The position numbers were made by a program, and so were the translations under genes. Below the pieces are notes generated by a model. It was not told the origin of the DNA and made no database searches. It saw only the letters and a program-made list of their open reading frames with translations. This document shows positions 15,715 to 60,805 of a stretch of 64,000 bases of DNA, piece after piece (within the stretch, counting starts at the first letter, position 1; each line of letters starts with the position of its first letter). This stretch comes from Deinococcus hopiensis KR-140 (lineage in GTDB: Bacteria > Deinococcota > Deinococci > Deinococcales > Deinococcaceae): positions 15,998-79,997 of the forward strand of contig CALPYF020000013.1 of the NCBI GenBank assembly GCA_943327755.2, in the 5' to 3' direction.

Positions 15715-15820
15715 GATCGCTGCATGCATACCACGCAGCCCGTGACACCGAAGCAAGACCGACGCCAATAGACGGCAGATGAGTTCACCTCGCGGTCAGT
15801 TGTGCGCTAGCGTGCCCGTC

Positions 15821-22846: not shown

Positions 22847-22922
22847 GGCGGTGGCCCCCTCCGGGGGGCTTTCTTCATGTGGGGAGTTCTGGCCCCCAGA
22901 CGCTGGGGGCCACGGTATACGC

Positions 22923-35204: not shown

Positions 35205-35684
35205 ATGCATACCACCACGATCTCCTTCCACCAGCCCCAGCCGCCCCTGAGCACCACCCTGACCTGCACGCCCGACCCACAGCAGGACTTTGTCGCCGAC
35301 CACAACCTGGGGACGCTCACCCCGGACCCCACGCCCACCAGCGTGCCCATCCGGGACGGCCTGCACTTCACGCCCGCCTGGAGTGAAGCGGACGAAGCCC
35401 GCGTGCGGATCACGTTCCTGGGCTTCACGCCTGAACAGGCCCTCCGGGAAGCACGGACGGACGCGATGCGCGCCGCGCGCCGCCGGGCCCTGTGCGGTGT
35501 CACGTGGCACGTCCAGCGGGTCACCTGCCGGGTCACGAACGCGGCCGGGGAGGTCCTGGCGTGCCGCACGATCGGCGGGATCTCCAGTGACCTCAGTGGC
35601 GGGGCACGCGCGCAGTTGGAAGGTGACCTCACCAGCGAAGCGCTCGCCGAGGCGCGCGACCGGGCCATCCTGGGGCTGAACTGA
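35205..35684 (+). CDS. hypothetical protein (159 aa), hairpin-led
   Basis: ATG 10 nt after the hairpin. Confidence 0.7.
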   Translation: MHTTTISFHQPQPPLSTTLTCTPDPQQDFVADHNLGTLTPDPTPTSVPIRDGLHFTPAWSEADEARVRITFLGFTPEQALREARTDAMRAARRRALCGVTWHVQRVTCRVTNAAGEVLACRTIGGISSDLSGGARAQLEGDLTSEALAEARDRAILGLN

Positions 35685-35902
35685 TGCAGCGGCACACCAG
35701 TCTGGACGGGTTGAATGCCGGCGACACCGTGCGCGTGAACGCGACGTGCCGCATCCCGGAGTGTCGCGGGCGACCGGGCATGATTGCGTTCATGTACGCC
35801 GCGCAACCTGCCTTCGGCACGCCGGCGGAATTCATCGTGGATGTCGACTTCATTCTTCGGCCTCTGGGCCGGGAGGAGTTCGATGTCCCTGCGGCGCCAT
35901 GA
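35684..35902 (+). CDS. small beta-rich hypothetical protein (72 aa)
   Basis: TGATG overlap; GDTVRV...G.I pattern is SH3/KOW-like. Confidence 0.55.
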   Translation: MQRHTSLDGLNAGDTVRVNATCRIPECRGRPGMIAFMYAAQPAFGTPAEFIVDVDFILRPLGREEFDVPAAP

Positions 35903-35943
35903 GTGGTGGCCCACCCGGCTCCCGGGTGGGCCAGGTCGCCGTC

Positions 35944-37146
35944 ATGACCTATACCCAGCCCCGTCCGGCCCCCACCGCCCAGCACGCCCCGATCCTCCCC
36001 GACGACAAGGCCCGCGCCGCCGAACTCTGGGAATCCGTCAAGGGCACGGTCCTGGAGGACGACTTCCGCCGTGTCAGCCGCGAGCACCCCGACAAGGACG
36101 CCAGCCGCATGCACTACCTGGCCTTCCTCGCGGACATCGAGGGCCTGTTCGCCGCGCCTGAAGCGGACCCGTGGGAGGCGTCCCAGCCCGCCCCGGTCAC
36201 CCAGCCTGTCCTGAGCGCCCCGCAGCCCGAGCCCACCCCAGAGCCCGAGCCGCAGCAGTCCACGCCCGCTACGGAACCCGCCCCGGACCCCGAGATGCAG
36301 CCCGACGCGACCCCCGCGCCCGAGGAGGGCGCCGCTGAATCCGAACCCGTCAGCGACGCGCAGGACGCCCCCGCGCCCATCGCCACGCTCGCCGCCCCGG
36401 TGCACAGCGGCCTGATCGCCCAGCTCGCCGGGCTGCTTGCCGACGGCGGGGAACTCACCTTCCAGCTGCTGCGGGTCGGGGGAGACGTCACCATCGGCAT
36501 CTTCCCCAAACCGCACCCCGGCGAGGCGGCCCCTGTACCGTTCATGCTGACCGAGACGCCCGACTGGATGGACGCGAACCTCGTGACCGCCATGCAGGGC
36601 TACGCCGGGGCGCGCCGGGATGCCTTCAGCGTCGCCCAGCAGGCCGCGCAGCGTCAGCAGGCCGCGAACAAGAAGGCGGCCGACAAGCCCGCCCCCACCC
36701 CCGCGAAGGCGAAAACGAGCGTCCTGACCCTCAAGGCCGCCGAGGGCACGACCCTGAAAGGCACCCTCGGCGGCAAGGACGTCCCCCTGGTGGTCGGGAA
36801 GAACGACGTGCCGCAGGGCACCCTGGAGATCGTCGCCACGCACCCCGCGTTCGGGGAGGTGAAGAAGACGGTCGCCACGCACGCGAACAAGGAGCACGAC
36901 TTCACCGAGCAGCAGGGCGCGCGCGTCACCGTGAACGTCACCCCGCAGAGTGCCACGCTCGAAGTCACCAAGGGCGACACGGTCATCGCCCTGCATCACG
37001 GCATCGAGATCCTGCTCGCGCCCGGCACGTGGGTCGTGAATGCGCAGGCGGCCGAGCACGCCACCGCGAATCAGACGATCAGCGTGAAGGCTGGGAAGCC
37101 CCAGGTGATCGAGATGACACTCAAGGAAGAGCAACGCCTCTTCTGA
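35944..37146 (+). CDS. PRTRC system protein E-like, fused to C-terminal PEGA-like beta repeats (400 aa), hairpin-led
   Basis: Central LIAQLAGLL...VTIGIFPK...PFMLTETPDWMDANL..AMQGY plus an Ala/Lys-rich tail resembles protein E. Two PEGA-like units follow. Lies next to protein C. Confidence 0.65.
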   Translation: MTYTQPRPAPTAQHAPILPDDKARAAELWESVKGTVLEDDFRRVSREHPDKDASRMHYLAFLADIEGLFAAPEADPWEASQPAPVTQPVLSAPQPEPTPEPEPQQSTPATEPAPDPEMQPDATPAPEEGAAESEPVSDAQDAPAPIATLAAPVHSGLIAQLAGLLADGGELTFQLLRVGGDVTIGIFPKPHPGEAAPVPFMLTETPDWMDANLVTAMQGYAGARRDAFSVAQQAAQRQQAANKKAADKPAPTPAKAKTSVLTLKAAEGTTLKGTLGGKDVPLVVGKNDVPQGTLEIVATHPAFGEVKKTVATHANKEHDFTEQQGARVTVNVTPQSATLEVTKGDTVIALHHGIEILLAPGTWVVNAQAAEHATANQTISVKAGKPQVIEMTLKEEQRLF

Positions 37147-37181
37147 CAGCGCTGGCCCCCTCTGGGGGCCATGTCGTCTGC

Positions 37182-37442
37182 ATGAGCCTGCCCCACTTAC
37201 ACGCCGCCCTGAACCGTACCGATTGGGCCGCCCTCGCCGAACAGAAAGAGGTCCTGGCGAACGAGGTCGCCAGCATCCGCTCCGCGAGGGCGCTCCTGGC
37301 CGCGCACGAGTGCGACTCGGCCGCTGACCTCGCCCTCGATCAGGCGGAGTCGCTCGACGGCATCCTGCACTGGATGGATGCGCTGATGGACGCCGCGCAG
37401 CAGGATGGGTTCCCCGTCGTGTTCCACATGGCCTCCAAGTGA
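37182..37442 (+). CDS. helical hypothetical protein (86 aa), hairpin-led
   Basis: ATG 10 nt after the hairpin. Confidence 0.7.
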   Translation: MSLPHLHAALNRTDWAALAEQKEVLANEVASIRSARALLAAHECDSAADLALDQAESLDGILHWMDALMDAAQQDGFPVVFHMASK

Positions 37443-37478
37443 CAGTGCTGGCCCCCTCCCGGGGGCCACGCGAAGCAC

Positions 37479-37709
37479 ATGACGAATCCCACAGTCAGCG
37501 GTCAACCCCAGGATCTCACCCGTAAGTTCGAGTTCGACGGGCACACCCTCGCAGACCCCAACCCGAAGATGACGCCCGAGCAGGTCAAACAGTTCTACGC
37601 CCCCACGCACCCGGAACTCACCACCGCCGGGATCGGGAGCCCCGTCACGGACCTGAAAGCCGGGACGATCACCATCACGTTCATCAAGAACTATGGCCGG
37701 AAAGGCTGA
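37479..37709 (+). CDS. PRTRC system protein C (ubiquitin-like; 76 aa), hairpin-led
   Basis: RKF.F.G..LADP.P..TPEQVK.FYA..HPELTTA...P....F...GRKG with a C-terminal Gly. Confidence 0.85.
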   Translation: MTNPTVSGQPQDLTRKFEFDGHTLADPNPKMTPEQVKQFYAPTHPELTTAGIGSPVTDLKAGTITITFIKNYGRKG

Positions 37710-37851
37710 TCCGTGCCCGCCCCGCACGCCACTCGTGCTGGACGTGCCCCGGCAGGGGCCGTCCGGGGCGCTCGACGCCCTGCGCCGCAGCCTGAAGACC
37801 ACGCGGGGCGCGCCCGAGCCGAGCGCAGCCCAGGTGCCCCTCCTGCCATAG
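37693..37851 (+). CDS. small PRTRC-associated ORF, paralogue 1 (52 aa, ends VPLLP)
   Basis: High GC3 frame overlapping the start of the F-like ORF; similar to 40732-40920 and 44580-44780. Confidence 0.55.
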   Translation: MAGKADPCPPRTPLVLDVPRQGPSGALDALRRSLKTTRGAPEPSAAQVPLLP

Positions 37852-38867
37852 TCGACCAGCTCATCTCAGTGGTGCCGCGCGCCGTGCCTTCCCTGGCCGG
37901 CGTGCGGCCCCTTGTGCTTCAAGCGGACCTGGATGCCGCCGAGCGGATGTACGAAGAAGGTCTGCGCAACGACCCCATCCCGCTCGTGACGCCCCTGCTG
38001 GGCACCGTTCTCCCGGACCCCGGCCCGGACGGGACGCTCGACCAGCGCCTCCAGCGCGCCCTGACGGCCGCCCTGCGCACCGACGGCTGGACGCTCAGCG
38101 TGCAGAACGAACGTGGCCACCTGCACTTCCGGGGGGAGACGGACGTGTCGTGCACGATTGACCTCCACCGCCTGCACGCCGCCCTGTGGCCCGTGGACCG
38201 ACACCTGCTCCCAGGCCTTCTCTTTGCACTGGAAGTCGGGTCCAGTCGGGTCACGCCCATCGTAGGCCCGCATGGAGCGTCGTTCATCTGTCAGCAGCAC
38301 TTCAGCACGGAAGCCCTGGCGGAGTACACCCTGCCAGAACGCTTCGAACGGCCGGACCTGGTCCTCACGGAGCGGGATGCCGTTCGGGCCGCGCGACGAC
38401 TGGGCATTCCACACGGGCAGCAGGTGCAGGACGCGTTGCCCTGGCCATACTTCCGGGATCTGCTGAGCCTGGAGGACACCCTGGCACGCCTGGAGCAGGT
38501 GCTGCCCCGTGTGCCCGCTCTCGGTCCACTCCTGACGCTCCTGCCAGAGTTGCACGCCGCAGACGGCGCGTTCCTCCACCCCACGGACGACGAGTGGAGT
38601 GATCTCTTCCATGACCCGATCCCGCACACGTTCCTGACCATCACGGGTGGGGACGATGACCTGAGCCTGGACACCATGAACGAGTTCCTTCAGAACCACT
38701 GGGAGTGCGGGAACGTCAGCCCCCAGTGGTGCGTGCAGGTCGGCCGGAATGGCGAGGGACACGACCGGCTCGCGGCGTACCTCCAGCACGCGCCCAGGAT
38801 CGCCGAGCTGGCCGCGAAGTGCGTCGGCGTGCTCGATTTTGCCAATCGGAGTCTGCCAAAGCCATGA
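37713..38867 (+). CDS. PRTRC protein F-like, paralogue 1 (true start uncertain; coding signal begins ~37848)
   Basis: Follows protein C; clearly similar to 40746-41894 (DL..LHAAL...D..LLPG, GIPH...V.D..PWPY). Confidence 0.6.
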   Translation: MPAPHATRAGRAPAGAVRGARRPAPQPEDHAGRARAERSPGAPPAIVDQLISVVPRAVPSLAGVRPLVLQADLDAAERMYEEGLRNDPIPLVTPLLGTVLPDPGPDGTLDQRLQRALTAALRTDGWTLSVQNERGHLHFRGETDVSCTIDLHRLHAALWPVDRHLLPGLLFALEVGSSRVTPIVGPHGASFICQQHFSTEALAEYTLPERFERPDLVLTERDAVRAARRLGIPHGQQVQDALPWPYFRDLLSLEDTLARLEQVLPRVPALGPLLTLLPELHAADGAFLHPTDDEWSDLFHDPIPHTFLTITGGDDDLSLDTMNEFLQNHWECGNVSPQWCVQVGRNGEGHDRLAAYLQHAPRIAELAAKCVGVLDFANRSLPKP

Positions 38868-38977
38868 CCGTCGCCCAACCCCAGCATTTCCAGAATGGAC
38901 CTGACGCTTCTGGATCAGGTCCGTGATACGTCCAGAAGACAGCCTCGTGTGGGATAAGTATCCAATACAGTGACCGC

Positions 38978-39856
38978 ATGCGGCACGACGGTGAAACGTG
39001 GGTCGAGCTCGGTGGTGTGCGCCAGTGGGTCCGCATTGCTGGATCGACCTGTAACACCGTGCCCCTCATCGTCCTTCACGGTGGCCCTGGAGGTCACCAC
39101 TGGGTCTTTGAGCGGACGGCAGGAACACGCTTGGAGACCGAGCGCACGGTGGTGTATCACGAGCAACGCGGCTGCGGTCGGAGCGAAGCGCCCGCTGACT
39201 CAGCCGCATACAGCATTCCCATACTTGTTGAAGACATTGTTCAACTCATGACCTGGTTGAATGTGCCGTGCGTTGATCTGCTCGGGTATTCGTTTGGGGG
39301 CGGTTTGGCCCTGAAGGTGGCACAGGTCAGACCAGATCTGATCAGACGAGTGATTGCGCAGGCTCCTGTCCTTGATGTGTGGCACTCAGAGATCGTCGAG
39401 TACCAATTAGCCGAGTTTAAAAAACTGACCTCGGCGAGCGAATCAGCCATGCCGAATCGAAGAGTATGTGAAAGCTCAGCGGAAGAGCTTGAGCAGATCT
39501 GGGCCATGGCAGGTGAATCACTGGTGAATCTATTCCTATTTCAGGACGCTGCGCATGGTGCTCAAAACCGACAGTGGTGGGCTGAAAGTGGATTGATCAA
39601 TACCGGGGAGATGCAGGCCGCATTGGCCTGTAGCCCGCACCATGAGGCCATCGATAGAACGATCCAGATACCAACGCTTCTCCTGATGGGCTTACATGAT
39701 CGTAACGTGCCACTTTCGTCTGTCAGGCGGCTGATGAACAACGTGGAGGATGTGAGGTTGATTTTGTTTGAGAACAGTGCGCACTTTCCAGACATTGAAG
39801 AAGTCGACGCTTACGTCCGCGTTGTTCTGGATTTTTTATCTGCTGTGACGTCGTGA
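38978..39856 (+). CDS. alpha/beta hydrolase, proline iminopeptidase-like (292 aa); lower-GC cargo
   Basis: LHGGPG, YHEQRGCGRS, nucleophile GYSFGG, D..V and SAHFP. TACAGT at -12..-7 of the ATG. Confidence 0.9.
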   Translation: MRHDGETWVELGGVRQWVRIAGSTCNTVPLIVLHGGPGGHHWVFERTAGTRLETERTVVYHEQRGCGRSEAPADSAAYSIPILVEDIVQLMTWLNVPCVDLLGYSFGGGLALKVAQVRPDLIRRVIAQAPVLDVWHSEIVEYQLAEFKKLTSASESAMPNRRVCESSAEELEQIWAMAGESLVNLFLFQDAAHGAQNRQWWAESGLINTGEMQAALACSPHHEAIDRTIQIPTLLLMGLHDRNVPLSSVRRLMNNVEDVRLILFENSAHFPDIEEVDAYVRVVLDFLSAVTS

Positions 39857-39983
39857 TCAGGAGAAGAGCCGACAGTGCGACAGCGTCACGTCAACACCGT
39901 TCAGTGAGATGGCGGTCCCCACTGTTACCTGAATGAAACGCACCGTAGCTGTGGCCCACCCCGATGTGGGCCACTCGAAGGGC

Positions 39984-40694
39984 ATGGTCAACGTGTTCCT
40001 CACCCCAGCCCCGGAGCGGCGCACCCCCACCCCCCTCGCCCCGGAGATGGCCCTGCTCCTGTACGGCGGCCACCAACGCGCCGCGATCCTCAAGCACCCC
40101 GTACACGACACCCCGCAGGGCTACGTGCTCGGGCCGGGCCAACTCCTCAGTAGAGAGGATCAGCAGCGCCTCGTGGACTTCACCGCCGGGACGGGGTTGA
40201 CGTTCACGGTGCCGACGACCCTGGCCACCGGCGTGCACTGCGTGTGCTGGTGGGTGCCGCCCCACACGCGGCCCCTGCTGTTCGATGCGAAGTACGACGC
40301 GGCCCGCTCCGTCGCGCGCCTCAGCGGCCAGCCCGTCCCGCACCCCGGCCTGGTGTTCATCGCCTCGCCCGGCACGCTGACCGTGTACGCCGTACGCGGC
40401 GATCAGCGCCCCACCCCAGCCACGGCCCTGTGCCACGCGCCGTACTGGAACATGTTCAGTTCCGCCCAGGTGTGCCGTGGCACCACCCGCTACCCGGAGG
40501 CCTGCACGCCAGACACGCAGGACGCGTGGGAAACGGCGTTCTTCCAGTCGGTGTTCACCGGGCCCAGCCGCACCGATCGGTACATGAATTGGAGCAAGAG
40601 CTACGAGGAACTGCTCGATGAGGCCAGGGCCCAGGGAGCCTTCCCGGACAGCGCGCTGCTGGAGACCGGGCGAATCCTGGCGGACCTCGCGTGA
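39984..40694 (+). CDS. PRTRC system protein B (prokaryotic E2 family D-like), copy 1 (236 aa), hairpin-led
   Basis: VPHPGLVF, LTVYAV...RP...LCHAPYWN....VCRG (putative catalytic Cys) and WETAFFQSVFT. Confidence 0.85.
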   Translation: MVNVFLTPAPERRTPTPLAPEMALLLYGGHQRAAILKHPVHDTPQGYVLGPGQLLSREDQQRLVDFTAGTGLTFTVPTTLATGVHCVCWWVPPHTRPLLFDAKYDAARSVARLSGQPVPHPGLVFIASPGTLTVYAVRGDQRPTPATALCHAPYWNMFSSAQVCRGTTRYPEACTPDTQDAWETAFFQSVFTGPSRTDRYMNWSKSYEELLDEARAQGAFPDSALLETGRILADLA

Positions 40695-40731
40695 AGGGCT
40701 GGCCCACCTTCGGGTGGGCCACCGCGCGCGC

Positions 40732-40920
40732 ATGGAGGAGCCCACATGCCCCGACTTCACCCCGACCCTGCGCGCCCTGCTGCCCACCGGAACGCGCGTC
40801 ATTCCCGCGCCCAAAGCAGCCGACCTGCAATCCCCCGACCTGAAACGCCTGACCGTCACCCTGAGGCAGAGCGGCGCCAGTCCCGCGCAGAGCAGCCCGC
40901 TCGTGCCCCTGCTGCTCTGA
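40732..40920 (+). CDS. small PRTRC-associated ORF, paralogue 2 (62 aa, ends VPLLL), hairpin-led
   Basis: ATG 10 nt after the hairpin; high GC3; stop overlaps CTG of the F frame. Confidence 0.65.
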   Translation: MEEPTCPDFTPTLRALLPTGTRVIPAPKAADLQSPDLKRLTVTLRQSGASPAQSSPLVPLLL

Positions 40921-41894
40921 TCCCGGCCGTTCCCCGCCTGGACGGCGTGACGCCCCTGATCCTCGACGCGGACCTGCGTGGCCTGGACGCCCGCGTGCAG
41001 CTCGCTCTGCATCAGGACCCAGCAGACGTGCTCCGCGCCCTGTTCCGGGATCTCCTCCCCGATGAACCGGGCAGCGCCCCGACCCTTCAGGCAGAACTCA
41101 ACCTGCTGGCACCCCTGGAGGACGCCGAGGTGACCCTGCACGCCTGCACGGACCAGGTCACGCTCACCGTCGAAGCCAGCGCGAACGGGTTCACGCACCT
41201 GCCCGCCCTGCATGCGGCCCTCGCCCGGCGTGACCCACACGTCCTCCCCGGGATCCTTGCCGCACTCGAAACGCACTCCGCGCGCCTCACCCCGCAGTTC
41301 GGGCCGCGTGAAGCGCATGGGCTGGCCGAGCAGTGGCACCACGAGGACCGCGTCATCGAGGACCTCCTCCAGGAGCACCCGGACTGGGACACCCTGACGA
41401 AGCGGGACGTGATCCGCCTCGCGCGGCGCAGCGGCATCCCGCACCCCTGGGTGGTGCGTGACGAGATGCCCTGGCCGTACCTGCGGGACGTGCCAGGCCT
41501 GGACGAAACCGTGGCGCGCCTGCGGTCCCTCGTGCCGGACTTCCCGGCCCTCGCGCCCCTGCTGCGTGCCCTGCCGGAGTTGCGCGAGGCGCATGGCGCC
41601 CTGCCGGCCATGACAGCCGAGGAGCGCGGCAGCGGTCTGCTCGACCACCTGCCCGGTCGGGCATACAGCCCTCTGAAGGAAGGGGCAAGCGCGATGGTGG
41701 ACGTGCTCGATGAGGTGATGGACCTGCACTGGCAGGGCGGGGAGACCGGCGCGGCCCTGCACCTGATCCTGCACGACTGCGACGCGGACCGCGCGCGGCT
41801 CGCGGACCTGCTCACGCACGCCCCGCGCGTGGAAGACGCCCTGAACCGCATTCACGACGCCCTGACGACTGCGGAGAACACGTGCTCATCCTGA
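40746..41894 (+). CDS. PRTRC protein F-like, paralogue 2 (start 40746 or 40917)
   Basis: Paralogue of 37713-38867. GGAGG precedes ATG 40746, but GC3 bias begins at CTG 40917. Confidence 0.65.
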   Translation: MPRLHPDPARPAAHRNARHSRAQSSRPAIPRPETPDRHPEAERRQSRAEQPARAPAALIPAVPRLDGVTPLILDADLRGLDARVQLALHQDPADVLRALFRDLLPDEPGSAPTLQAELNLLAPLEDAEVTLHACTDQVTLTVEASANGFTHLPALHAALARRDPHVLPGILAALETHSARLTPQFGPREAHGLAEQWHHEDRVIEDLLQEHPDWDTLTKRDVIRLARRSGIPHPWVVRDEMPWPYLRDVPGLDETVARLRSLVPDFPALAPLLRALPELREAHGALPAMTAEERGSGLLDHLPGRAYSPLKEGASAMVDVLDEVMDLHWQGGETGAALHLILHDCDADRARLADLLTHAPRVEDALNRIHDALTTAENTCSS

Positions 41895-41979
41895 GGGCGA
41901 CTGCCCCACAGAATGAATGTCATGCACTTGTGTCAGCACGTGCGTTCACGCCATCATGGGCGACAAAGGAGGACCACCG

Positions 41980-42174
41980 ATGCGCAACCGACTGAGCAAA
42001 CTCATGCAGGACCTGCTGGCCACCCGAGAAGGCACGGCGGCCGTGCACCGCGCCGCGACGAACGAAGAGGGATTCGTCCGGACCGTTGTCAACGGCAAGC
42101 GCGTCGTCGTGGCCACCCGTGACGGCCTCCGCAACATGCAGCGCAACAGACCGCGCCCGACCGTCAGCAGATGA
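41980..42174 (+). CDS. small basic protein (64 aa)
   Basis: AAGGAGG RBS; ATGA overlap with the next gene. Confidence 0.65.
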   Translation: MRNRLSKLMQDLLATREGTAAVHRAATNEEGFVRTVVNGKRVVVATRDGLRNMQRNRPRPTVSR

Positions 42175-42977
42175 ACATCGCCTTCCCGGTCCTGCTCCTC
42201 ACCCTGGTACTCCTACCAGGGTTTTTGTTGCGCTACGGCATGTTGCGCGGCACCTACCGCCGCAGCCCCATCACCGCCCAGACCGTGACGGCTGACCTGG
42301 GCAGCGTCACCTTCTTCAGTGCGCTGATCCACCTGTTCTTCGGCTGGGCAACATTCAACTGGGGCGTGGCCCCAAAACTCGATGTCCTCCTGCCCCTTCT
42401 CCTCGGTCAATTCGGAAAGGACAGCGTGTTGCTCACGACGATCCTTCAGGATCTCGGCGGGCGCCCCTGGGTGTACATCGGGTACTTCTTCGGGACCAGT
42501 GCAGCCGCCTACCTGCTCGGCCTGGGGCTGCATGACAGCATGCGGCGCGGCACCCTCGCCCGACGGCTCCCGCTGATCAACGACTGGCACGACCTGCTCT
42601 CCAGAGACGCCAACCGTCAGCCGAACCCCAATGGCGGCCCCGACCTGCTCCCGGACGTGTACATCACGACCGTAGTCGATCTGAAGATCAAAGATCAGCC
42701 GGTGCTCGTCCGAGGCCTCGTGAAGGACTGGTTTCTCACGCCGGCGGGCGATCTGGACTACATCGTCCTGAGCCGGGCATTCCGTCGACCCCTGAGCGCC
42801 GAAAGTCCAGCAGGCGATCCAGATCCGGTCACAGGGGTTGACAGTCGCTACTACGACATCAGGGGCGATCACTTCATTCTTCGTCGCAGTGAGATGATCA
42901 CCCTGAATGTCCTGCACCTATACATCGCGGATGACTCTTCATCTGAACCCCTGCCCACGCTCGACGCCTCGTCCTGA
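42171..42977 (+). CDS. multi-pass membrane protein with a soluble C-terminal domain (DUF6338-like, 268 aa)
   Basis: LLLTLVLLPGFLL N-terminus, three TM segments, then a beta-rich GLVKDW....DYIVL region. Confidence 0.65.
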   Translation: MNIAFPVLLLTLVLLPGFLLRYGMLRGTYRRSPITAQTVTADLGSVTFFSALIHLFFGWATFNWGVAPKLDVLLPLLLGQFGKDSVLLTTILQDLGGRPWVYIGYFFGTSAAAYLLGLGLHDSMRRGTLARRLPLINDWHDLLSRDANRQPNPNGGPDLLPDVYITTVVDLKIKDQPVLVRGLVKDWFLTPAGDLDYIVLSRAFRRPLSAESPAGDPDPVTGVDSRYYDIRGDHFILRRSEMITLNVLHLYIADDSSSEPLPTLDASS

Positions 42978-43022
42978 AGCGGGGAGTTCTGGCCCACCGC
43001 CAGGGTGGGCCAGTGCACGCGC

Positions 43023-43751
43023 ATGCCCTTCCAGGTCACGTACCCGCCCAGCCCCGCCGAGCTCATGCCCCAGCCCCTCCTGCCCACCCTCGCTCTGCTG
43101 ATCTACGAGCGCGCCACTCAGCACGGCAGCCAGGTCCTCCTGCGCAAGCACGCCGTGCGGCAGGACGAGAGGGCGTGCACGCTCGGACCCGCCCAGGCGC
43201 TCACCCGGGCCGACGTCAACGACCTCACGCGCCTCCTCGCTGGTCAGGGCCTGCAGCGCACCCGCCCCACGACCCTCGCGGTCGGCCTCCAGTGCGTCGC
43301 CTGGTGGCGGCCGCCCGGCCTACGCCCCATGCTCTTCGACGCAAAGTACGCCCAGTCGAGGAGCGTCGCGCGCCTGTCCGGCATTCCGGTCCCTCACCCA
43401 GGTCTGGTCTTCGTCGCCACGCCCGGTACGCTCAAGGTGTACGCCGTCACCGGGAACGGGCTTCCCACGGACGACACGCCCCTGATGCACGCCCCGTACT
43501 GGAACATGTTCCCCGGCGGGCAGCTCTGCCGCGGTACCACCCGCTACCCCGACTCGTGCACACCTGCCGCGCAGGACGATTGGGAGACCGCGTTCTTCCA
43601 GTCCGTGTTTACCGGCCCCAGCCGCACTGACCGGTACATGAACTGGGGCAAGAGCTACGAGGAACTCCTCAACGCGGCCCTCGCCGCCGGGACGTTCCCC
43701 GAACAGGTCCTCATTCCCGCTGGACTGACCCTCGCCCAGGCCCTGAGCTGA
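43023..43751 (+). CDS. PRTRC system protein B (E2 family D-like), copy 2 (242 aa), hairpin-led
   Basis: VPHPGLVF...LMHAPYWN....LCRG...WETAFFQSVFT. Confidence 0.85.
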   Translation: MPFQVTYPPSPAELMPQPLLPTLALLIYERATQHGSQVLLRKHAVRQDERACTLGPAQALTRADVNDLTRLLAGQGLQRTRPTTLAVGLQCVAWWRPPGLRPMLFDAKYAQSRSVARLSGIPVPHPGLVFVATPGTLKVYAVTGNGLPTDDTPLMHAPYWNMFPGGQLCRGTTRYPDSCTPAAQDDWETAFFQSVFTGPSRTDRYMNWGKSYEELLNAALAAGTFPEQVLIPAGLTLAQALS

Positions 43752-43794
43752 CACCCGAGAGTCCTGGCCCCCTGACGGGGGCCACGCGGGCATC

Positions 43795-44583
43795 ATGCAC
43801 ACCCTGACCTTCGACCCCAAGGACCCCGTCCGCCTCATTCTCGTGGGCGTTGGCGGCACCGGCAGCCTCATGCTCACCCACCTCGTCCGACTCGACCAGG
43901 CCATCCGCGCCCTCGGCGGCGCCGGCCTGCACGTCACGGCCTTCGATCCGGACGTGGTCAGTGAAACGAACCTCACCCGGCAGAACTTCGCCCCCGCCGA
44001 CATCGGCCGCCATAAGGCCGTCGTGCTCGTCGAGCGCTGCAACCTGTACGCGGGCCTGTGCTGGGACGCGTACCCCCGTACCCTCCAGGACGGGGACGTG
44101 AAGGGTGCGCACGTCGTCATCAGCTGCGTGGACAGCGCCCAGAGCCGCCGGGCCATCCACGCCGCCTTCCGCTCCCAGCCCCCGCAGTACTGGCTGGACT
44201 GCGGGAACGACGCGGCCACCGGGCAGGTCATCCTCGGGCAGGTCCGTCAGAGTCCGGCGCGCCTCCCGCACGTCCTGGACCGCGACCCCACCATGCACAC
44301 GGGCGTGGATGATGACCGCCCCAGCTGCTCGGCCGCGGAGGCCCTGACCCGTCAGCACCTGTTCATCAATCCGGCCGTCGCCCTCCAGGCGGTGCAGCTC
44401 CTCGGTGAACTCCTCCTGAACGCGAAGACCCCCACGTGCGGGGCGTTCATCAACCTCGCTGAGCCACTGCGCGTCGTGGCGCTCCCCGTGCCCGAGGGAC
44501 AGCCCGACGTCCCGCGTGCCCGCCGCCCCAAGCCCCTACTCAAAGCCCGCCGGGAACGCCGTCCCCGCCGTCCCGCCGCATGA
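43795..44583 (+). CDS. PRTRC system ThiF-family (E1-like) protein (262 aa), hairpin-led
   Basis: GVGGTGS, D.VSETNLTRQ.F...DIG..KA, SCVD, WLDCGN and SCSAAEAL..Q.LFIN. Confidence 0.9.
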   Translation: MHTLTFDPKDPVRLILVGVGGTGSLMLTHLVRLDQAIRALGGAGLHVTAFDPDVVSETNLTRQNFAPADIGRHKAVVLVERCNLYAGLCWDAYPRTLQDGDVKGAHVVISCVDSAQSRRAIHAAFRSQPPQYWLDCGNDAATGQVILGQVRQSPARLPHVLDRDPTMHTGVDDDRPSCSAAEALTRQHLFINPAVALQAVQLLGELLLNAKTPTCGAFINLAEPLRVVALPVPEGQPDVPRARRPKPLLKARRERRPRRPAA

Positions 44584-44780
44584 CGCCCATCCCGACCATC
44601 TCCGAGGAGGAGTTCATCATATGGCTCGACTCGCACCGCACCCGACAACCCCCGCTCCGCACGCTCGCCCAGCGTACGCGCGCCCCCGAGGCGCTCACCC
44701 GCGCCCTGGTCAAACTCACACGGACGCAGGAGCGTACGCCATCCGACCCGCGCTTGCCCCCACCACCCCTGCTGCCCTGA
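44580..44780 (+). CDS. small PRTRC-associated ORF, paralogue 3 (66 aa, ends PPLLP)
   Basis: ATGA overlap with ThiF; high GC3; stop overlaps CTG 44777. Confidence 0.6.
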   Translation: MTPIPTISEEEFIIWLDSHRTRQPPLRTLAQRTRAPEALTRALVKLTRTQERTPSDPRLPPPPLLP

Positions 44781-45814
44781 TCCCACATCGCACGGCACCC
44801 CTGAACGTGCCCCGCGCGCACCGCCTCCCCACCGGGTACGTCATCCGCCCAGTGGAGGAGGGCGTCATGGACGCCGCGTGTACCCTCGCCCTACACCTCA
44901 CCCAAGTAGGCCTCATCCCCCGCCGCGCCCCCCGTCCGGGCGAGACGCCGGAGTCGTACTCCCTGAACTCGTATGTGGAGACCTGGCGGGCAGATCTCAG
45001 CGCGCCGGACGTGCTCCTTGATGTCACTCTCCTGTGCGGGTACTCGCAGCACAACACGGCCACCATCGGCGTGGAGGTCCTGCCCCAGTCCGGCCGGGTG
45101 CTGGACCTGCGGGCCCTGCGCGCGGATCTGCGCGCCCGGGACCGGTACCTGTTCGGCGCCCTGATGTTCGCCCTGCGCGCAGCTCTCGCCCCGTACCAGC
45201 CTGTCTTCACTGGTCAGGACGCCGTCCAGGGCGAGGAGGCCCTGCGGTTCGGGGAGATGTGGTGGGATGACCACCTCGAAGCGCTCAGCGAAGCCGAGCA
45301 CGAGGAACGCACCCGCGAACCCCGCGCGCGTGACCTGTGCCGCTGGCTGCAGCGCCAGGGCGCGCCCACGCCCTACGACCTGGGCCGCACGTACCCCATG
45401 GACACGTGGACTGCGCCAGACGACGTGGCCCGCTCCCTCCAGGCCCGCCTGCACGCCCACCGGGTGGTCCCAGGGCTGACGGAGGCCGCGGACCTGCTCG
45501 CGCACCTCGCCACGCTGCCCTTCGAGTGGCGCACCACGCGCGCCTGGGCCGAGGACAGCCTGCACCCGGGGGTGATCGACGTGGTGATCTGCCAGGACAC
45601 CCCAGAGCGCGACCCCGTGCTGGAATTCCACCGGGACGTGACCGACCTGCTCGGCATGCCGCACACGGAGAGCCCCGTCGAATCCCTGGCCATGCTCGAA
45701 GTCCACGACTGGGCCTCACACGAGGCCGCACTGAGGTACCTGCGCGCGGTCGCGGACGTGCAGGCCCGCTCGCGCGCCATGTGGGACGCCCTCACCCGCG
45801 GCGCCACCTCGTGA
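44777..45814 (+). CDS. PRTRC protein F-like, divergent paralogue 3 (frame open from 44516)
   Basis: LDLRALRADLRARDRYL..ALM.AL and A.P..L...YP resemble paralogues 1 and 2; same upstream architecture. Confidence 0.55.
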   Translation: MIPHRTAPLNVPRAHRLPTGYVIRPVEEGVMDAACTLALHLTQVGLIPRRAPRPGETPESYSLNSYVETWRADLSAPDVLLDVTLLCGYSQHNTATIGVEVLPQSGRVLDLRALRADLRARDRYLFGALMFALRAALAPYQPVFTGQDAVQGEEALRFGEMWWDDHLEALSEAEHEERTREPRARDLCRWLQRQGAPTPYDLGRTYPMDTWTAPDDVARSLQARLHAHRVVPGLTEAADLLAHLATLPFEWRTTRAWAEDSLHPGVIDVVICQDTPERDPVLEFHRDVTDLLGMPHTESPVESLAMLEVHDWASHEAALRYLRAVADVQARSRAMWDALTRGATS

Positions 45815-45852
45815 CGTAGCCCTGGCCCCCTGCCCGGGGGCCACGGACGCGT

Positions 45853-46230
45853 ATGAGCGAACTCAGCCTTCTGGACCACATGGCCCGCACTCACTTCCCC
45901 GCTGAACCGGCGTGGCAGGCCCGCCGGGCCCTCATCGACTTGCTGGATGACCTGGATCACGAGACGCTGCGCACCCTCCGCGTCCAGCGGCACCAGGCAC
46001 CGAACGCGCCGGACGCCCCCGCACTCGAACAGGGCACGCTTGGCGCCCTGATCGAGGACTACGTGCACACCAACCCAGGAGTCACCGCCGTGGAGGTGCA
46101 GCAGGCCTTCCCACACGCCCACCCCGGTAACATCACCGACGTGCTCGCCGACTTCAGGGCGAGCAGGCGGGTGCGCGTGATTCACAAGCACCTGTACCCC
46201 TGGTCGCCCGCCGCAGTCTCCACCCCGTGA
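45853..46230 (+). CDS. hypothetical protein with a possible C-terminal wHTH (125 aa), hairpin-led
   Basis: LIEDYVHTNPGVTAVEVQQAF...ITDVLADF..RRV pattern. Confidence 0.7.
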   Translation: MSELSLLDHMARTHFPAEPAWQARRALIDLLDDLDHETLRTLRVQRHQAPNAPDAPALEQGTLGALIEDYVHTNPGVTAVEVQQAFPHAHPGNITDVLADFRASRRVRVIHKHLYPWSPAAVSTP

Positions 46231-46265
46231 AGCGCTGGCCCCCAGCTGGGGGCCACCCCGCACGC

Positions 46266-47003
46266 ATGAGCGCCACCATCACCATCTCCACCGAGCGCAC
46301 CCAGCGCGCTGCCCCCGCCCTGCACGAACCGGTCCTCGCCCTGGTCCTGTACGCGCCCGGCGGCCAGGACGGCCTGAACAGCGCGTACACCCGCAAGCAC
46401 CGCATCCGGCACGACAGCCGTGGCCGGGCCATGCTGGGCGCCGCGCAGGCGCTGACCCACGAGGACGCCCGTGACCTCCTGATGACCCTGGGCGGCCGGG
46501 CTCTCACCCCCACCCGAGAGAACACGCTGGCCACCTCACCCACCGCGTGCGCCTGGTGGATCCCCACCGGGGAACGAGCCCTCCTGTTCAACCCCAAGTA
46601 CGCCCAGGCCGGCAGCGTGGCCCGCTTCTTTGGGCAATCCGTGCCCCACCCACCGCTGGTCTTCATTGCTGGGCCGGGCAGCCTGAGCGTGTACGCCCTC
46701 CGGGAGAACACGCGCCCCACCCTGGACACGCCCGTGTGCCACGCGCCGTTCTGGAACATCTTCCCCAGCGGACAGGTGTGCCGGGGGTCCACCGCGTACC
46801 CGCAAGCCTGCACGCCGGACACGCAACCGGACTGGGAGGCGGTGTTCTTCCAGTCGGAGTTCACCGGGCCGAGCCGCACCGACCGGTACATGAACTGGGG
46901 GAAGAGCTACGAGGAACTGCTGGACGCGGCGCAGGCGCAGGGCACGTTCCCGGCCGAGGTGCTCGTGGACGCGGGGAAGACCCTCGGGCAGATCCTGACC
47001 TGA
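46266..47003 (+). CDS. PRTRC system protein B (E2 family D-like), copy 3 (245 aa), hairpin-led
   Basis: VPHPPLVF...VCHAPFWN....VCRG...WEAVFFQSEFT. Confidence 0.85.
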   Translation: MSATITISTERTQRAAPALHEPVLALVLYAPGGQDGLNSAYTRKHRIRHDSRGRAMLGAAQALTHEDARDLLMTLGGRALTPTRENTLATSPTACAWWIPTGERALLFNPKYAQAGSVARFFGQSVPHPPLVFIAGPGSLSVYALRENTRPTLDTPVCHAPFWNIFPSGQVCRGSTAYPQACTPDTQPDWEAVFFQSEFTGPSRTDRYMNWGKSYEELLDAAQAQGTFPAEVLVDAGKTLGQILT

Positions 47004-47942: not shown

Positions 47943-48464
47943 ATGTTCAACCCCAATGGATACGACATCAAAGGCGTGAAGTACCTCCCCACCCACGACG
48001 GCGTCGCCTTCACTGGCACGCTGTACAAGGACGGCAAGCGGATCGGCAGCGTCGAGAACGGCGGTACCGGCGGCCCCAACTGCGCACACTTCGATACGCG
48101 TGAAGGCGGGACCGCCTTCCGCGCGTGGGTCGCCACCCTCGGCACGCACACCTACCCCGCCCAGAATGGCAGACCCGAACTCACCGTGCCGTTCGACGAG
48201 GAGACCGCCATCGAGTGCCTGCTCCAGATCGACGACGCGCGCCGCGAGGCGCGGGCCTTCGACCGGCGAGCCCAGAAGGCCATCGTCTACCGCGAGGCGG
48301 GCGACGGACCCGATCAGTACCGCAGCGTGAAGTTCGCGTCCACCCTGACGCCCACCCGCGCCCTGGCCGCCTACCGGGCCAGTGCCCCCTGGTGGTCCCG
48401 CGTGACGGAGGTCTGGCACATCGGCGAAGGCTGGAAGCTGGAACGGGCTACACCCCAGGACTGA
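47943..48464 (+). CDS. hypothetical protein (173 aa)
   Basis: CAGGAG RBS; beta-rich N-terminus FTGTLYKDGKRIGSVENGGTGG. Confidence 0.75.
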   Translation: MFNPNGYDIKGVKYLPTHDGVAFTGTLYKDGKRIGSVENGGTGGPNCAHFDTREGGTAFRAWVATLGTHTYPAQNGRPELTVPFDEETAIECLLQIDDARREARAFDRRAQKAIVYREAGDGPDQYRSVKFASTLTPTRALAAYRASAPWWSRVTEVWHIGEGWKLERATPQD

Positions 48465-48508
48465 CCAGGGCTGGCCGGGGGGGTTGCCCCCCGGCCCACC
48501 TGCTCTTG

Positions 48509-49339
48509 ATGACTCTCCACGGCTTCATTCCGGTCCTCACCCACCGCTTCCCACTCGACGCGCTCCTCACCCCGTACGTGGAACGTTACGCGCCTGCCGC
48601 GCTGATCAGCGCCGCCGAACTCCGCGCCGCGCCCGGCGCACCCCTGCCCGCCTTGCCCCTGATGATCGACAGCGGCGGGTACCAGGCCCTGGACGCCCAC
48701 GCAACCGTCGTAGACACCGGACCGTTCGCGGCGCTGCACGTGCCCGGCGCGGTCCCACTCACCCCACTGGACGTGTATGACCTGCAGCGGTCCGCGCGGG
48801 CTGCCGTGTGCTTCACCCTGGATTTCCCGTCTCCCGCTACCGCGACCACCGACGAACGTGTCCGCCGCCTCCACCTTGGGGAACGCAATGCCCTGTGGGC
48901 CCTGTCCCAGATCCGCCCCGGCACCCTGTACGCCAGCGTCCAGCCCGGCCAGGACCTCACCGCGGTTCTCGCTGCCCGCCCGGACGGCATCGCCCTGGGC
49001 GGCCTCGCCCCGCACAGCGCCGACCGCGACCGCCTCCGGCACGAGATCCGCACCGTCCGCGCCCAGCTCCCCGCCGGACTGCCCCTGCACGTGTTCGGCC
49101 TCGGGCACCCCGACTCCATCCACGCAGCCCTTTCGGCCGGCGCGACCACCGTGGACTCCAGCAGCCCGCAGCGCATGGCCGCCAGCGGCCGCGCCTGGAC
49201 GGGGGAGGTCATTCCGGACGCCGCCCCACACGAACGCCTGCGGCTCGCCGTCACGAACCTCCTCACCGCCCTGCACGCGGACGTGCCCCTCGCCCTGCAC
49301 CCCGCGTGGCGACCCCTCACCCCCAGGAGAAGCGCGTGA
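48509..49339 (+). CDS. tRNA-guanine transglycosylase (TGT)-fold protein without the C-terminal Zn domain (276 aa), hairpin-led
   Basis: MIDSGGYQ, TLDFP, GIALGGL, HVFGLG and VDSSS; all TGT catalytic-position Asp residues are present. Confidence 0.85.
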   Translation: MTLHGFIPVLTHRFPLDALLTPYVERYAPAALISAAELRAAPGAPLPALPLMIDSGGYQALDAHATVVDTGPFAALHVPGAVPLTPLDVYDLQRSARAAVCFTLDFPSPATATTDERVRRLHLGERNALWALSQIRPGTLYASVQPGQDLTAVLAARPDGIALGGLAPHSADRDRLRHEIRTVRAQLPAGLPLHVFGLGHPDSIHAALSAGATTVDSSSPQRMAASGRAWTGEVIPDAAPHERLRLAVTNLLTALHADVPLALHPAWRPLTPRRSA

Positions 49340-51408
49340 CCAGGCCAGCCCCGATCACCGCCCTTCCCGTCCTCTCCGGCCCGGACCTCGCCCTGGCGTG
49401 CGGCGTCACCACGCTCCCCGTCAGCGCCCTGATCACCAGCCCCACCGGGAGCGGCAAGACCCACCTCGCCCGCGAAGCCGCCCGGCACGCCCTCACGTGC
49501 GGCGAACGCGTCATCGTGACCGTGCCCACCAAAGCCCTCGCGCACGAGATCGCCCGCACCTGGGCGGACTTGCCCGGCCGCGTGCAGGCCTTCACCCGCG
49601 ACCAGCCCAGCCCCCCGTACCGCGCCGCGCACGTCCTGATCATGACGCCCGAACGCCTGGACCTCGTGACGCGCCGCTGGCGCCGCCACCACCCCTGGCT
49701 CGCGCGGGTGGGCCTCCTGATCACCGACGAGATCCACACCATCAGCGACCCCGCCCGCGGCGCCGCCCTGGACGCCGCCCTCACGCGCCTGCGGGCCACG
49801 CTGCCCCTCCTGCGCGTCCTGGCCCTGACGGCCACCTGCGGGAACCCCCGCGTCCTCGCCGACTGGCTGGGCGCCCTTCACATTGGAGGTGGCATCCGAC
49901 CGATGCCACTTACCTGGACTGCCAAGACCGTCCGCGCAGTCGCTGACAAACCCGCCGCCCTCCAGCGGGTGCTCACGCCCGGGGAGTCCACGCTGGTGTT
50001 CGTGCACGGCCGCCAGCGGGCCGCTGATCTCGCCGCGCACCTCAAGAAGGCTGGGCATGCCAGCGCCGCGCACCACGCGGGCCTCACGCCGGGCGTGCGT
50101 GCCCAGGTCGAACGCGATTTCCGTGAGGGCCGTACCCGTGTCCTGATCGCCACGCCCACCCTGGAAGTCGGCGTGAACCTCCCCGCTGAGCACGTCGTTC
50201 TGTACGACCTCACCACCTTCGGTCTCGATGGGCGACAGGCTCTCACTGTGAACGCTGCGTGGCAGCGCGCCGGACGCGCCGGACGGCCCGGCGCCACGCG
50301 CGCCCACGTCACGGTGCTCGGCACCCGCGCGGAGCAGCCCGGCCAGTACGAACGCGGCCGCTTCGAACCGCTCAGCAGTCCCCTGAGCCGCGGCGAGCAC
50401 CTGCTGGGTTTCCTGCTCGGATGCGTGGACGGCGGGTACGCCCGCACCCGCGCACAGGCGACCCGCATGGCCCAGCAGACCTTCGCGGCGCACACCGGCA
50501 CCCTGAACGCCCCTCGCGCCGTGGCGACCCTCCTCCAGCAGGGTGCCCTCGCCGACCACGGGGGCGTGCTCAGCGTCACGCCACTGGGCCGCGTGGCCAG
50601 TCAGGCGCTGCTCCCTGTGCCCGTCGTCGCGGCCGTTCGCGCCCTCCCACAGGACCCGACGGTGCTGGACGTGCTGCTGGCCGCCGCCGCGCATGTCCGC
50701 CTGCCCAGCCTCGGGGACGAGTCGCGCGCCACCCTCGTCGGCGCCCTGATGAGCGTTCCGTCCCGCACGCTGGACGCGGGCACCGCCCCGCCGGACGCGG
50801 TGATCGGCGCGGCCCTCCTGCACGCCACCACCCACCACGGGGACGACGGGGCCGCGGAGCTGAGTGGCCTGCACGAGCCAACCCTGACGGCCCTGCGCGA
50901 GGAAACTCTCCGCATCGTGAGCGCCTGGCACGCCCTGTCCCCCAGCATCAGCGTGAACCTCACCCGCGTGAGCCTCGCCGCGCAGCTCCCTCCACTCACC
51001 GCGACCCTCGCGCTGCTCAGCGGGGTCGGGCAGGTCACCGCCCGCGCACTCAGCGCCGCCGGCGTCCCGGATCTCCCCACGCTCGCCCGCACGCCCCCCG
51101 CGCAGCTCACCGCTGCCGGATTCACGCTCCGCACCGCAGAACGGCTGACCCAGGCTGCCCAGGCATACGGCCCGCTCACCCTGAGCGAACCCACCCCCGC
51201 GCCCCGCACCCGGACGGTCCTCGCCGACCCGGCCCGGCTCGCCCGCGCACGCCTCTTGACGGTCACCCCCACGACACACGGCTGGACGGTCACCGGCGGA
51301 AGTCAAGCACGCACCGTCACCCGCCAGGGCGAGGCCTTCATCTGCGACTGCCCGGATGGCGTGCAGCTGTGCAAACACCTCTTGGCCGTGGGATTGCACC
51401 TGGCGTGA
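49336..51408 (+). CDS. Ski2/Hel308-like DEAH helicase with HhH and C-terminal SWIM zinc finger (690 aa)
   Basis: SPTGSGKT, PTKAL, TPE, TDEIH, TAT, HHAGL, ATPTLEVGVNLPA, QRAGRAGR and SWIM CDC..CKH. GTGA overlap with the TGT-fold gene; AGGAG RBS. Confidence 0.9.
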   Translation: MTRPAPITALPVLSGPDLALACGVTTLPVSALITSPTGSGKTHLAREAARHALTCGERVIVTVPTKALAHEIARTWADLPGRVQAFTRDQPSPPYRAAHVLIMTPERLDLVTRRWRRHHPWLARVGLLITDEIHTISDPARGAALDAALTRLRATLPLLRVLALTATCGNPRVLADWLGALHIGGGIRPMPLTWTAKTVRAVADKPAALQRVLTPGESTLVFVHGRQRAADLAAHLKKAGHASAAHHAGLTPGVRAQVERDFREGRTRVLIATPTLEVGVNLPAEHVVLYDLTTFGLDGRQALTVNAAWQRAGRAGRPGATRAHVTVLGTRAEQPGQYERGRFEPLSSPLSRGEHLLGFLLGCVDGGYARTRAQATRMAQQTFAAHTGTLNAPRAVATLLQQGALADHGGVLSVTPLGRVASQALLPVPVVAAVRALPQDPTVLDVLLAAAAHVRLPSLGDESRATLVGALMSVPSRTLDAGTAPPDAVIGAALLHATTHHGDDGAAELSGLHEPTLTALREETLRIVSAWHALSPSISVNLTRVSLAAQLPPLTATLALLSGVGQVTARALSAAGVPDLPTLARTPPAQLTAAGFTLRTAERLTQAAQAYGPLTLSEPTPAPRTRTVLADPARLARARLLTVTPTTHGWTVTGGSQARTVTRQGEAFICDCPDGVQLCKHLLAVGLHLA

Positions 51409-59998: not shown

Positions 59999-60160
59999 AA
60001 CCAGAGCGTCCCGTGCGTAGGGGTGACGAGTGCAAAAACATGCGGTCCCAGTGGACCCGGTGGTCAGGGGTGGCCTGCCCGGGGGGCAGGCCAGGGCAGA
60101 GGGGTTCACGCGTGTCGCACGCCGATCACGCCCGTTTCGTCCTCATTCCAGGAGCACCCC

Positions 60161-60670: not shown

Positions 60671-60805
60671 CCCGCGAGTGGGGGAGAGGACCGTGCCTCT
60701 TCCCCTCCCGCATGCCTTCGCTTCAGGGGTGGCCCCACCGATGCGGTGGGGCCAGGCCGCGCTGCAACCCCACGCGCTCTGTCGTGGCGTTCAGGAGACC
60801 CCATC

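Follow-up and report, generated by a model that had tools for sequence, protein, structure and literature searches.

A Deinococcus variant of the PRTRC cassette combining one E1, one ubiquitin-like protein and three putative E2-F modules

A 64,000-nucleotide stretch of the Deinococcus hopiensis KR-140 genome (hereafter the window) carries, between positions 35944 and 47003, a variant of PRTRC, the ParB-Related, ThiF-Related Cassette (TIGR03734-03742), which is operon type 6d of Iyer, Burroughs & Aravind 2006 (PMC1779556). By its family matches and gene order, the locus is assigned to a Deinococcus-specific PRTRC branch in which the JAB peptidase and the PRTRC-type ParB have apparently been lost, and a unit made up of a small open reading frame (ORF), an F gene and a B gene (s-F-B) has been tripled. 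We think it probable, with appreciable room for doubt, that a single pair of activating enzyme (E1) and ubiquitin-like protein feeds three modules, each of one conjugating-enzyme-like (E2-like) protein and one F protein, that differ in specificity, with no removal of the tag being encoded. The cassette varies a known family and is of use as a natural test case; it is no new type of system.

The genome searched comprises 4.63 Mb in 102 contigs and is 100% complete by marker genes. Genes of the window, whose GC content is 68-72%, were picked with a codon-position GC filter, under which the cassette forms a single co-oriented gene row; it lies on the + strand, as do all features given below between 35205 and 47003. 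An earlier note on this DNA had named genes for proteins E and C, ThiF and three copies of B and had proposed to check them by hidden Markov model (HMM) searches with the TIGRFAM PRTRC models and Prok-E2_D. All six genes were found at the starts it gave, with HMM scores over cut-off and each start 11 nt past a hairpin, whereas the F genes failed this check. The PRTRC ThiF-family E1 (262 aa, 43795-44583) scores 245.3 bits against TIGR03736 (cut-off 144.75) and is the one copy in the genome. It carries GVGGTG at residue 18, CVD at 111 and PSCS at 176 (Cys178), and its GxGGxG, N..RQ, CVD and PSCS motifs are invariant in an alignment with canonical PRTRC ThiF. The ubiquitin-like PRTRC protein C (76 aa, 37479-37709) reaches 69.2 bits with TIGR03738 (cut-off 45.95) and 65.8 bits with PF14454 (E 2.9e-18), the sole Prok_Ub match in the whole genome. 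The GRKG terminus noted previously was recovered as NYGRKG-stop, that is, a free C-terminal Gly for which no trimming is needed. PRTRC protein E (35944-37146) passes TIGR03741 marginally, at 40.1 bits against a cut-off of 37.95; the domain covers about 100 of its 400 residues, mid-protein, and canonical cassettes have an E of about 140-150 aa.

The three B proteins are encoded at 39984-40694 (B1), 43023-43751 (B2) and 46266-47003 (B3), and score 149.7, 148.4 and 149.9 bits, respectively, against TIGR03737 (cut-off 131.45 bits). Their E-values with PF14460 (Prok-E2_D) are about 1e-31 to 1e-33 (B1, 4.1e-33; B3, 7.5e-31). The motif described for them earlier is present in every copy as AP[YF]WN-x7-C-R-G, with the cysteine at position 164 in B1, 169 in B2 and 172 in B3, and the P, N, C and G of P-x2-N-x7-C-x-G are invariant in 36 of 36 B sequences, two canonical proteobacterial ones included. 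Pairwise identity of B1, B2 and B3 is 53-59%; between the paralogues the E2 cores are 66-70% identical and the N-terminal domains 38-47%. An AlphaFold2 model of B1, with a mean predicted local distance difference test score (pLDDT) of 87, shows an extra N-terminal beta domain followed by a helix, four strands, the Cys loop and three helices, an order of elements that fits a UBC domain. We infer the E2 assignment of B from the Pfam profile, the conserved motif and this secondary-structure order. A PRTRC protein B in a Phocaeicola prophage has been described as a recurring hotspot of hypervariability, for which a diversity-generating retroelement is held responsible (preprint 10.64898/2026.10.01.756045), and by analogy this would fit a recognition role for B. 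Other resources added little: a PDB sequence search with ThiF, B and C returned no match, PADLOC models, among them those of the known anti-phage ubiquitin-like systems (Bil, CBASS Cap2/3 and 6A-MBL), matched none of B, C, F and E, and PHROGs likewise gave nothing useful. ThiF alone matched PADLOC E1-E2 models, weakly and partially (E 5e-5, below 20 bits; the Rossmann part, Cap2-type).

In the mechanism that we propose, ThiF would adenylate Gly76 of C, which would then move, possibly via Cys178 of ThiF, to Cys164 of B1, Cys169 of B2 or Cys172 of B3. Each B would partner its co-duplicated F, and the divergent N-terminal domain of B together with the fast-evolving F would select the target of C. 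The combination of conserved cores and diverged surfaces is the pattern expected if the core serves one E1 and one modifier while the other surfaces specialise. A different proposal is that C is not a protein modifier at all and that ThiF, C and B act, as ThiS/MoaD-type systems do, in relaying sulfur or activating small molecules. Sulfur transfer is indeed another task of ThiF-family enzymes and of beta-grasp carriers ending in a C-terminal Gly (PMC1779556), and the loss of JAB takes away the sole part that points specifically to protein conjugation. However, HMM scans found no sulfur-metabolism, rhodanese or cofactor genes in the cassette, three copies are retained of an E2-like protein whose Cys is invariant, and C ends in K-G as against the G-G of ThiS and MoaD. 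We regard a sulfur relay as very unlikely.

That no JAB-like protein A lay in view had been remarked before, and the wider search agrees: TIGR03735 (protein A, JAB) gave no match in this genome and none in 111 Deinococcus genomes, 32 of which carry PRTRC ThiF, while as a positive control it scored 239 and 144 bits on the canonical reference plasmids of Cupriavidus taiwanensis (NZ_LT984809) and Sphingobium sp. CAP-1 (NZ_CP046256). Neither TIGR03735 nor the generic Prok-JAB model PF14464 matched anything on the contig of the window (C13), and the H-x-H...S-x-x-D metal motif of JAB enzymes was not found in the unassigned ORFs of the cluster. The slot before ThiF that JAB takes in the canonical order B-A-ThiF is occupied here by B2, which directly abuts ThiF. 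Judged by these models, JAB loss is genus-wide in Deinococcus. Since the system encodes no peptidase, the tag would require no maturation and the cassette could not take it off. The termini of the modifiers bear on this point. Protein C of Cupriavidus (L021:6123-6347) has five residues beyond the conserved G-x-K-G and would thus need trimming, and that of Sphingobium (L020:6110-6316) stops at the Gly, as does Deinococcus C. JAB loss accompanies a ready-made modifier, yet a ready-made modifier occurs together with JAB as well.

A JAB encoded elsewhere in the cell might deconjugate C in trans, in which case the cassette would not be truly irreversible. PF14464 indeed finds two genes elsewhere in the genome, at C49:14427-14735 and C66:176-517. 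The former is the single chromosomal JAB present in every Deinococcus sampled. The latter belongs to a minus-strand pair (C66:89-1962, L004) at the end of a 13.6-kb contig, in which a 175-aa JAB comes after a 449-aa E1-like protein with GCGAVGG and a C-terminal CxxC; this pair is taken to be a second, unrelated E1-JAB system of the genome. In five other PRTRC-positive Deinococcus genomes, generic JABs were never at the cassette, and C itself needs no trimming, so we give deconjugation in trans a low probability. Two further canonical parts were also missing. Nothing in the genome exceeded the cut-off of the PRTRC-type ParB (TIGR03734, about 555 aa and located beside E in canonical cassettes); the best score in the window, 47.8 bits against a cut-off of 278.6, came from a 316-aa ParA partner 6 kb upstream, and the ParB proteins of the window are, by these scores, of the ordinary partition type. 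Protein D (TIGR03739) had no match in this genome or in the control genomes, no positive control having been run for this model.

The F genes lie at 37869-38867 (F1, upstream module; GTG start most likely at 37869), 40947-41894 (F2, middle module) and 44807-45814 (F3, downstream module). Their description as three F-like genes holds in terms of kinship and remote PRTRC F homology, but the long frames first used overstate the genes, and the curated models are unmatched. The copies are mutually related at 20-37% identity (F1-F2, 37%; F2-F3, E 1e-4). No Pfam or NCBIfam model matched F1, F2 or F3 at E<=0.01, the cut-offs of TIGR03742 and PF14456 were not reached, and the best TIGR03742 score genome-wide, 11 bits, fell elsewhere in the genome. 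A profile of the three F proteins matched 36 clusters among 1.84 billion representative proteins, while a word-indexed protein search retrieved just two relatives of F1. Three of 33 members of the F family match TIGR03742 weakly, with E down to 9e-5. Pairwise BLAST between these and canonical F was insignificant, and hhalign of the Deinococcus F family against 20 canonical PRTRC F sequences (PF14456, alpha-hel2) gave 96% probability with E 4.6e-9 over 279 columns. The agreement of this alignment with the position in the cassette justifies the label F-like: on this evidence F1-F3 are remote homologues of canonical PRTRC F, though not members by curated cut-off. Foldseek comparison of the F1 model (AlphaFold2, pLDDT 90.8) with viral models returned one uncharacterised phage protein (E 9e-5). 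Protein F was once suggested to be an enzyme (PMC1779556), and this suggestion gains no support here.

Rather than directing the tag, F, or alternatively protein E, might receive it, each B attaching C to the F next to it and thereby, for instance, turning a plasmid function on or off. In favour of this, F and B invariably lie side by side and were duplicated together, and protein E is lysine-rich (5.0%, about the 92nd percentile of the genome), as is C (7.9%). The F proteins, on the other hand, are about 330 residues long and contain 0-2 lysines, and the family alignment has no lysine position conserved to 75%; with lysines so few and unconserved, F hardly looks like a protein that must accept the tag on a lysine. 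We consider this substrate role unlikely.

Directly before each F gene lies a small ORF: s1 (52 aa, 37693-37851) ends in VPLLP-stop and has its ATG within the end of C, s2 (62 aa, 40732-40920) ends in VPLLL-stop, and s3 (66 aa, 44580-44780) ends in PPLLP-stop, its ATG overlapping the ThiF stop (ATGA). Across 11 loci (the window and L007, L022, L025-L031 and L041), all 25 of 25 F genes are preceded by such an ORF of 50-75 codons, in the +1 frame, which ends right where the F core starts. The C-terminus (V/P)P(L/M)L(P/L)-stop is kept across loci; the codons for PLLP and the stop codon vary, with all three stops in use, so it is the peptide that is conserved rather than a slippery RNA sequence. 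Small ORFs of the downstream type, at eight loci, also keep (S/T)LEE-x3-WL. GC content at the third codon position is 0.85-0.88 in the small ORFs of the window versus 0.59-0.64 in the overlapping upstream F frame (s1, 0.88 versus 0.63; s2, 0.87 versus 0.59), and a GTG stands 18-27 nt past each small-ORF stop, ahead of the first helix in the F model. Together these features suggest that s1, s2 and s3 are probably separate micro-proteins and that F is translated from the GTG by coupling. The repeated unit would then be s-F-B, so that of the triplicated F-B modules described earlier the three copies of B and F are present, but the unit is larger than F plus B. A programmed -1 frameshift fusing the small ORF to F was rejected as the simplest reading, given the lack of a slippery sequence and the GTG downstream, though some fusion product may still be made. 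Alignment by hhalign of the small ORFs with the N-terminal 50 residues of the canonical 380-aa F gave no match, only a loose likeness of 'FLTLP' to 'PLLP'. In D. wulumuqiensis, Cupriavidus and Sphingobium, the Prokaryotic Genome Annotation Pipeline likewise calls a small ORF of this kind between the C and F genes.

To place the three modules in a wider setting, B was surveyed in 301 Deinococcota genomes and combined with ThiF counts and gene maps of 20 loci. Protein B occurs in 35 of the 301 genomes, 31 of these Deinococcus, and about 11 of the 31 have more B than ThiF. Three modules surround one ThiF in five genomes (this one, G004, G123, G026 and G109), and at least six further genomes have two, with the compact form C-s-F-B-ThiF-s-F-B in G169; the remaining Deinococcus PRTRC types have one B beside ThiF. 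Plasmid pDEGR-2 of D. grandis (AP021851) matches the region at 95% identity over 72% of its length and holds the same three modules. That canonical cassettes are single-copy, as had been assumed, was borne out by the Cupriavidus and Sphingobium references, with the order ParB-E-C-F-B-A-ThiF, and by a search of 72,556 plasmids (PLSDB), in which canonical B occupied 329 places in 320 records. With B1 as query, 177 records and 185 places were found, and of the eight surplus places seven fall in Deinococcus and one in a Cupriavidus plasmid. Single-copy B is the rule on plasmids, and the exception is the Deinococcus lineage, whose public plasmids carry the same feature annotated as hypothetical proteins or 'PRTRC system protein B'. 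By these maps, the expansion is a trait of a Deinococcus plasmid lineage, for which the arrangement C-s-F-B-ThiF-s-F-B is the likely basal, two-module state.

A branch supported at 100/100 in the F tree separates the downstream F copies, drawn from 10 loci, from the others, and the four middle copies group together (100/98) within the upstream set. This grouping implies that the split between upstream and downstream modules is older than the sampled elements and that the middle module, F2 being restricted to the three-module lineage, was copied later from the upstream one; the fully supported downstream group further indicates an old duplication that has been maintained. The B tree places the B proteins of multi-module loci in one clade (100/100), within which B1 and B2 form a sub-clade with the upstream B of the two-module forms. 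All module copies are intact in the five three-module and at least six two-module genomes. The parallel F and B trees, the faster divergence of F and of the B N-terminal domain, and the retained catalytic positions would all agree with a specificity particular to each module.

Several observations weigh against this reading. The downstream B copies do not form one clean clade, and the two B proteins of a single locus group together in G057 and in G116, resembling independent duplications or gene conversion. Foldseek with the B1 model found no E2 or UBC structure in the PDB (best E 0.15), and with the F1 model no significant match and hence no solved structural relative. No polar residue is invariant in the alignment of the Deinococcus-type F family, and the role of F as a specificity factor is a guess from its co-duplication with B. 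Lysine depletion of F, considered as a possible mark of a conjugation enzyme, lies at the 3rd-16th percentile of the genome and is not significant.

The tree groupings in G057 and G116, which suggest recent duplication or conversion, also favour the idea that recombination between related PRTRC cassettes left the extra F-B modules behind as redundant copies and that one module does the work. The module junctions vary by strain in a manner in keeping with this: a hydrolase gene is present here, two reverse-strand genes in D. grandis, and the genes x85 and y268 both here and in G004. Yet the split between upstream and downstream F, at 100/100, precedes the divergence of the sampled elements, and both kinds are intact throughout; every copy keeps the catalytic positions unchanged, the paralogues stand at 20-59% identity without decay, and the duplicate E1 and ubiquitin-like genes expected from cassette fusion are absent in every case. 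Redundant leftovers are, on balance, an unlikely account, and we retain the reading in which one E1 and one modifier supply specialised modules.

Most of the cassette genes had been described as having their own hairpin, and nine hairpins with a GGCCC[CA] stem were located before cassette ATGs (starts at 35908, 37154, 37450, 39953, 40701, 42991, 43766, 45824 and 46237; region 35908-46254). They lead, in order, E, s86, C, B1, s2, B2, ThiF, z125 and B3, with a loop of 2-7 nt and the ATG 10-11 nt past the hairpin end. The stem motif has 11 exact matches, against 0 expected. In the window as a whole, 28 sites spread over 9383-58489 have a GGCCC stem of 7-9 bp, with a spacing of 11 nt to the ATG in 25, and the hairpin-associated ATGs lack a Shine-Dalgarno sequence. 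Genome-wide, 29 of 31 hairpin-ATG pairs lie on contig C13, all on the + strand. From this distribution, the hairpin is predicted to be an element-specific expression signal, common to PRTRC and other establishment-type genes. Because nearly every gene or gene pair has such a hairpin, the cassette is probably co-expressed with the element's other establishment-type genes. The support for the earlier proposal that conjugation would act on host proteins at entry consists of this shared signal. A more elaborate hierarchy, in which F and its PLLP micro-protein would form an E3-like device for each E2 and the element would irreversibly tag several host or plasmid proteins at establishment, is offered tentatively, as a possibility that we would not yet bet on.

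The element itself appears to be conjugative and plasmid-like, as contig C13 also encodes a VirB4/TraC-like ATPase, two RepA genes, a type IV coupling protein, a ParB-like gene and ParAB. Upstream of the cassette on the same contig is a giant methylase/SNF2 gene, and between it and protein E lie p159 (35205-35684), which is hairpin-led, and p72 (35684-35902), neither with a family match; their position is kept in D. grandis, G026, G109 and G057. Between E and C lies s86 (86 aa, 37182-37442), which has no Pfam match and whose relatives adjoin ThiF in other Deinococcus PRTRC loci. The 125-aa z125 (45853-46230), between F3 and B3, has no family match and is kept in D. grandis and G004. Other genes at the module junctions differ between strains. 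An alpha/beta-fold hydrolase (38978-39856; PF00561, E 3.3e-20) is inserted between F1 and B1 and stands outside the cassette; it is found in this strain only, the F1-B1 interval of D. grandis, G004 and G109 being without it, and the GC content of 38-40 kb, 0.61, is lower than that of the window. As a substitute for JAB, this hydrolase was ruled out for being strain-specific and of lower GC. Between F2 and B2 (41917-42977), x85 and the predicted membrane protein y268 constitute variable cargo with a sub-threshold DUF6338 match alone; they are found in G004, replaced by other genes in D. grandis and missing from G109. Since other strains hold different cargo at these places, the module junctions are insertion hot spots.

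Farther out, the window holds several neighbours worth recording. A 1021-aa protein (15779-18844) with eCIS_core/DUF4157 and SH3b domains resembles the polymorphic-toxin type and is plasmid-borne. An AAA_5 (MoxR-like) ATPase and a VWA-domain protein (21326-24422) occur in the same tract as the cassette. An ATP-binding and a VWA-like protein are likewise found in the vicinity of the canonical Cupriavidus cassette (L021:15023-18245), and an AAA ATPase follows B in D. wulumuqiensis (L042:15159-16799); such genes may be a recurrent PRTRC neighbour. At 48125-51408, a gene for a TGT-fold protein (tgt_general, 49.8 bits; weak DpdA match) overlaps one for a Hel308/Ski2-like helicase with a helix-hairpin-helix domain, and the two may be a DNA-modification or anti-restriction pair. 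The plasmid-like element also encodes, at 59438-63589, a protein containing a DdrB-like domain (PF12747, E 3.9e-40) and, after it, a UvrD-like helicase. DdrB is a Deinococcus repair protein that binds single-strand DNA.

The locus resembles canonical PRTRC in that E, C, B and ThiF are over cut-off, in the order E-C-(small ORF)-F-B...ThiF and in residing on a large conjugative or plasmid element. It is unlike canonical PRTRC in having no protein A, no PRTRC-type ParB and no match to protein D, three B and three F genes, an E of 400 aa, F proteins beyond the reach of TIGR03742 and PF14456, and element-specific leader hairpins. The closest comparisons lie within Deinococcus. With the two-module forms (G169; D. 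gobiensis I-0 plasmid NC_017791) the cassette shares the JAB-less C-s-F-B-ThiF-s-F-B backbone, and these forms lack the middle module (s2-F2...B2 or B1). From pDEGR-2 of D. grandis it differs in the hydrolase between F1 and B1, which is present only here. In the literature searched, we found no functional study of PRTRC or 6d cassettes, despite their occurrence in more than 320 PLSDB records, which include many plasmids from Pseudomonas, Burkholderia and Xanthomonas. The Deinococcus branch indicates that the cassette can do without JAB and the special ParB, and probably without protein D, and that s-F-B behaves as one evolutionary unit, and one such element supplies three matched as well as mismatched F-B pairs, a natural dissection of the role of F and of specificity.

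Among other bacterial systems, the anti-phage conjugation systems Bil (BilABCD) and Cap2/Cap3 of the cyclic-oligonucleotide-based anti-phage signalling system (CBASS) would share with this cassette the logic of E1, E2 and ubiquitin-like protein, cysteine chemistry and a location on mobile DNA. Unlike them, the cassette has separate small E1 and E2 proteins, three E2s and no JAB or deubiquitinase, and it lies among establishment genes and not in a defence island. The Bub operons are, like it, a diverged bacterial family of E1, E2 and ubiquitin-like protein, as described by Ye et al. (10.1101/2024.11.21.623953). Bub is reported there to use oxyester intermediates and to have a peptidase-E1 fusion and a serine protease; the present cassette differs in that its E2-like proteins keep the invariant cysteine and no peptidase is encoded. 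The eukaryotic ubiquitin cascade differs from it in other respects, as here there is no recognisable RING or HECT E3, no deubiquitinase, and an F fold without a solved relative. The likeness to that cascade lies in one E1 and one modifier for several E2-like paralogues, whose cores are conserved and whose other surfaces have diverged. Should the modules indeed direct one modifier to different targets, ThiF would be, to our knowledge, the first bacterial E1 that serves several dedicated E2s.

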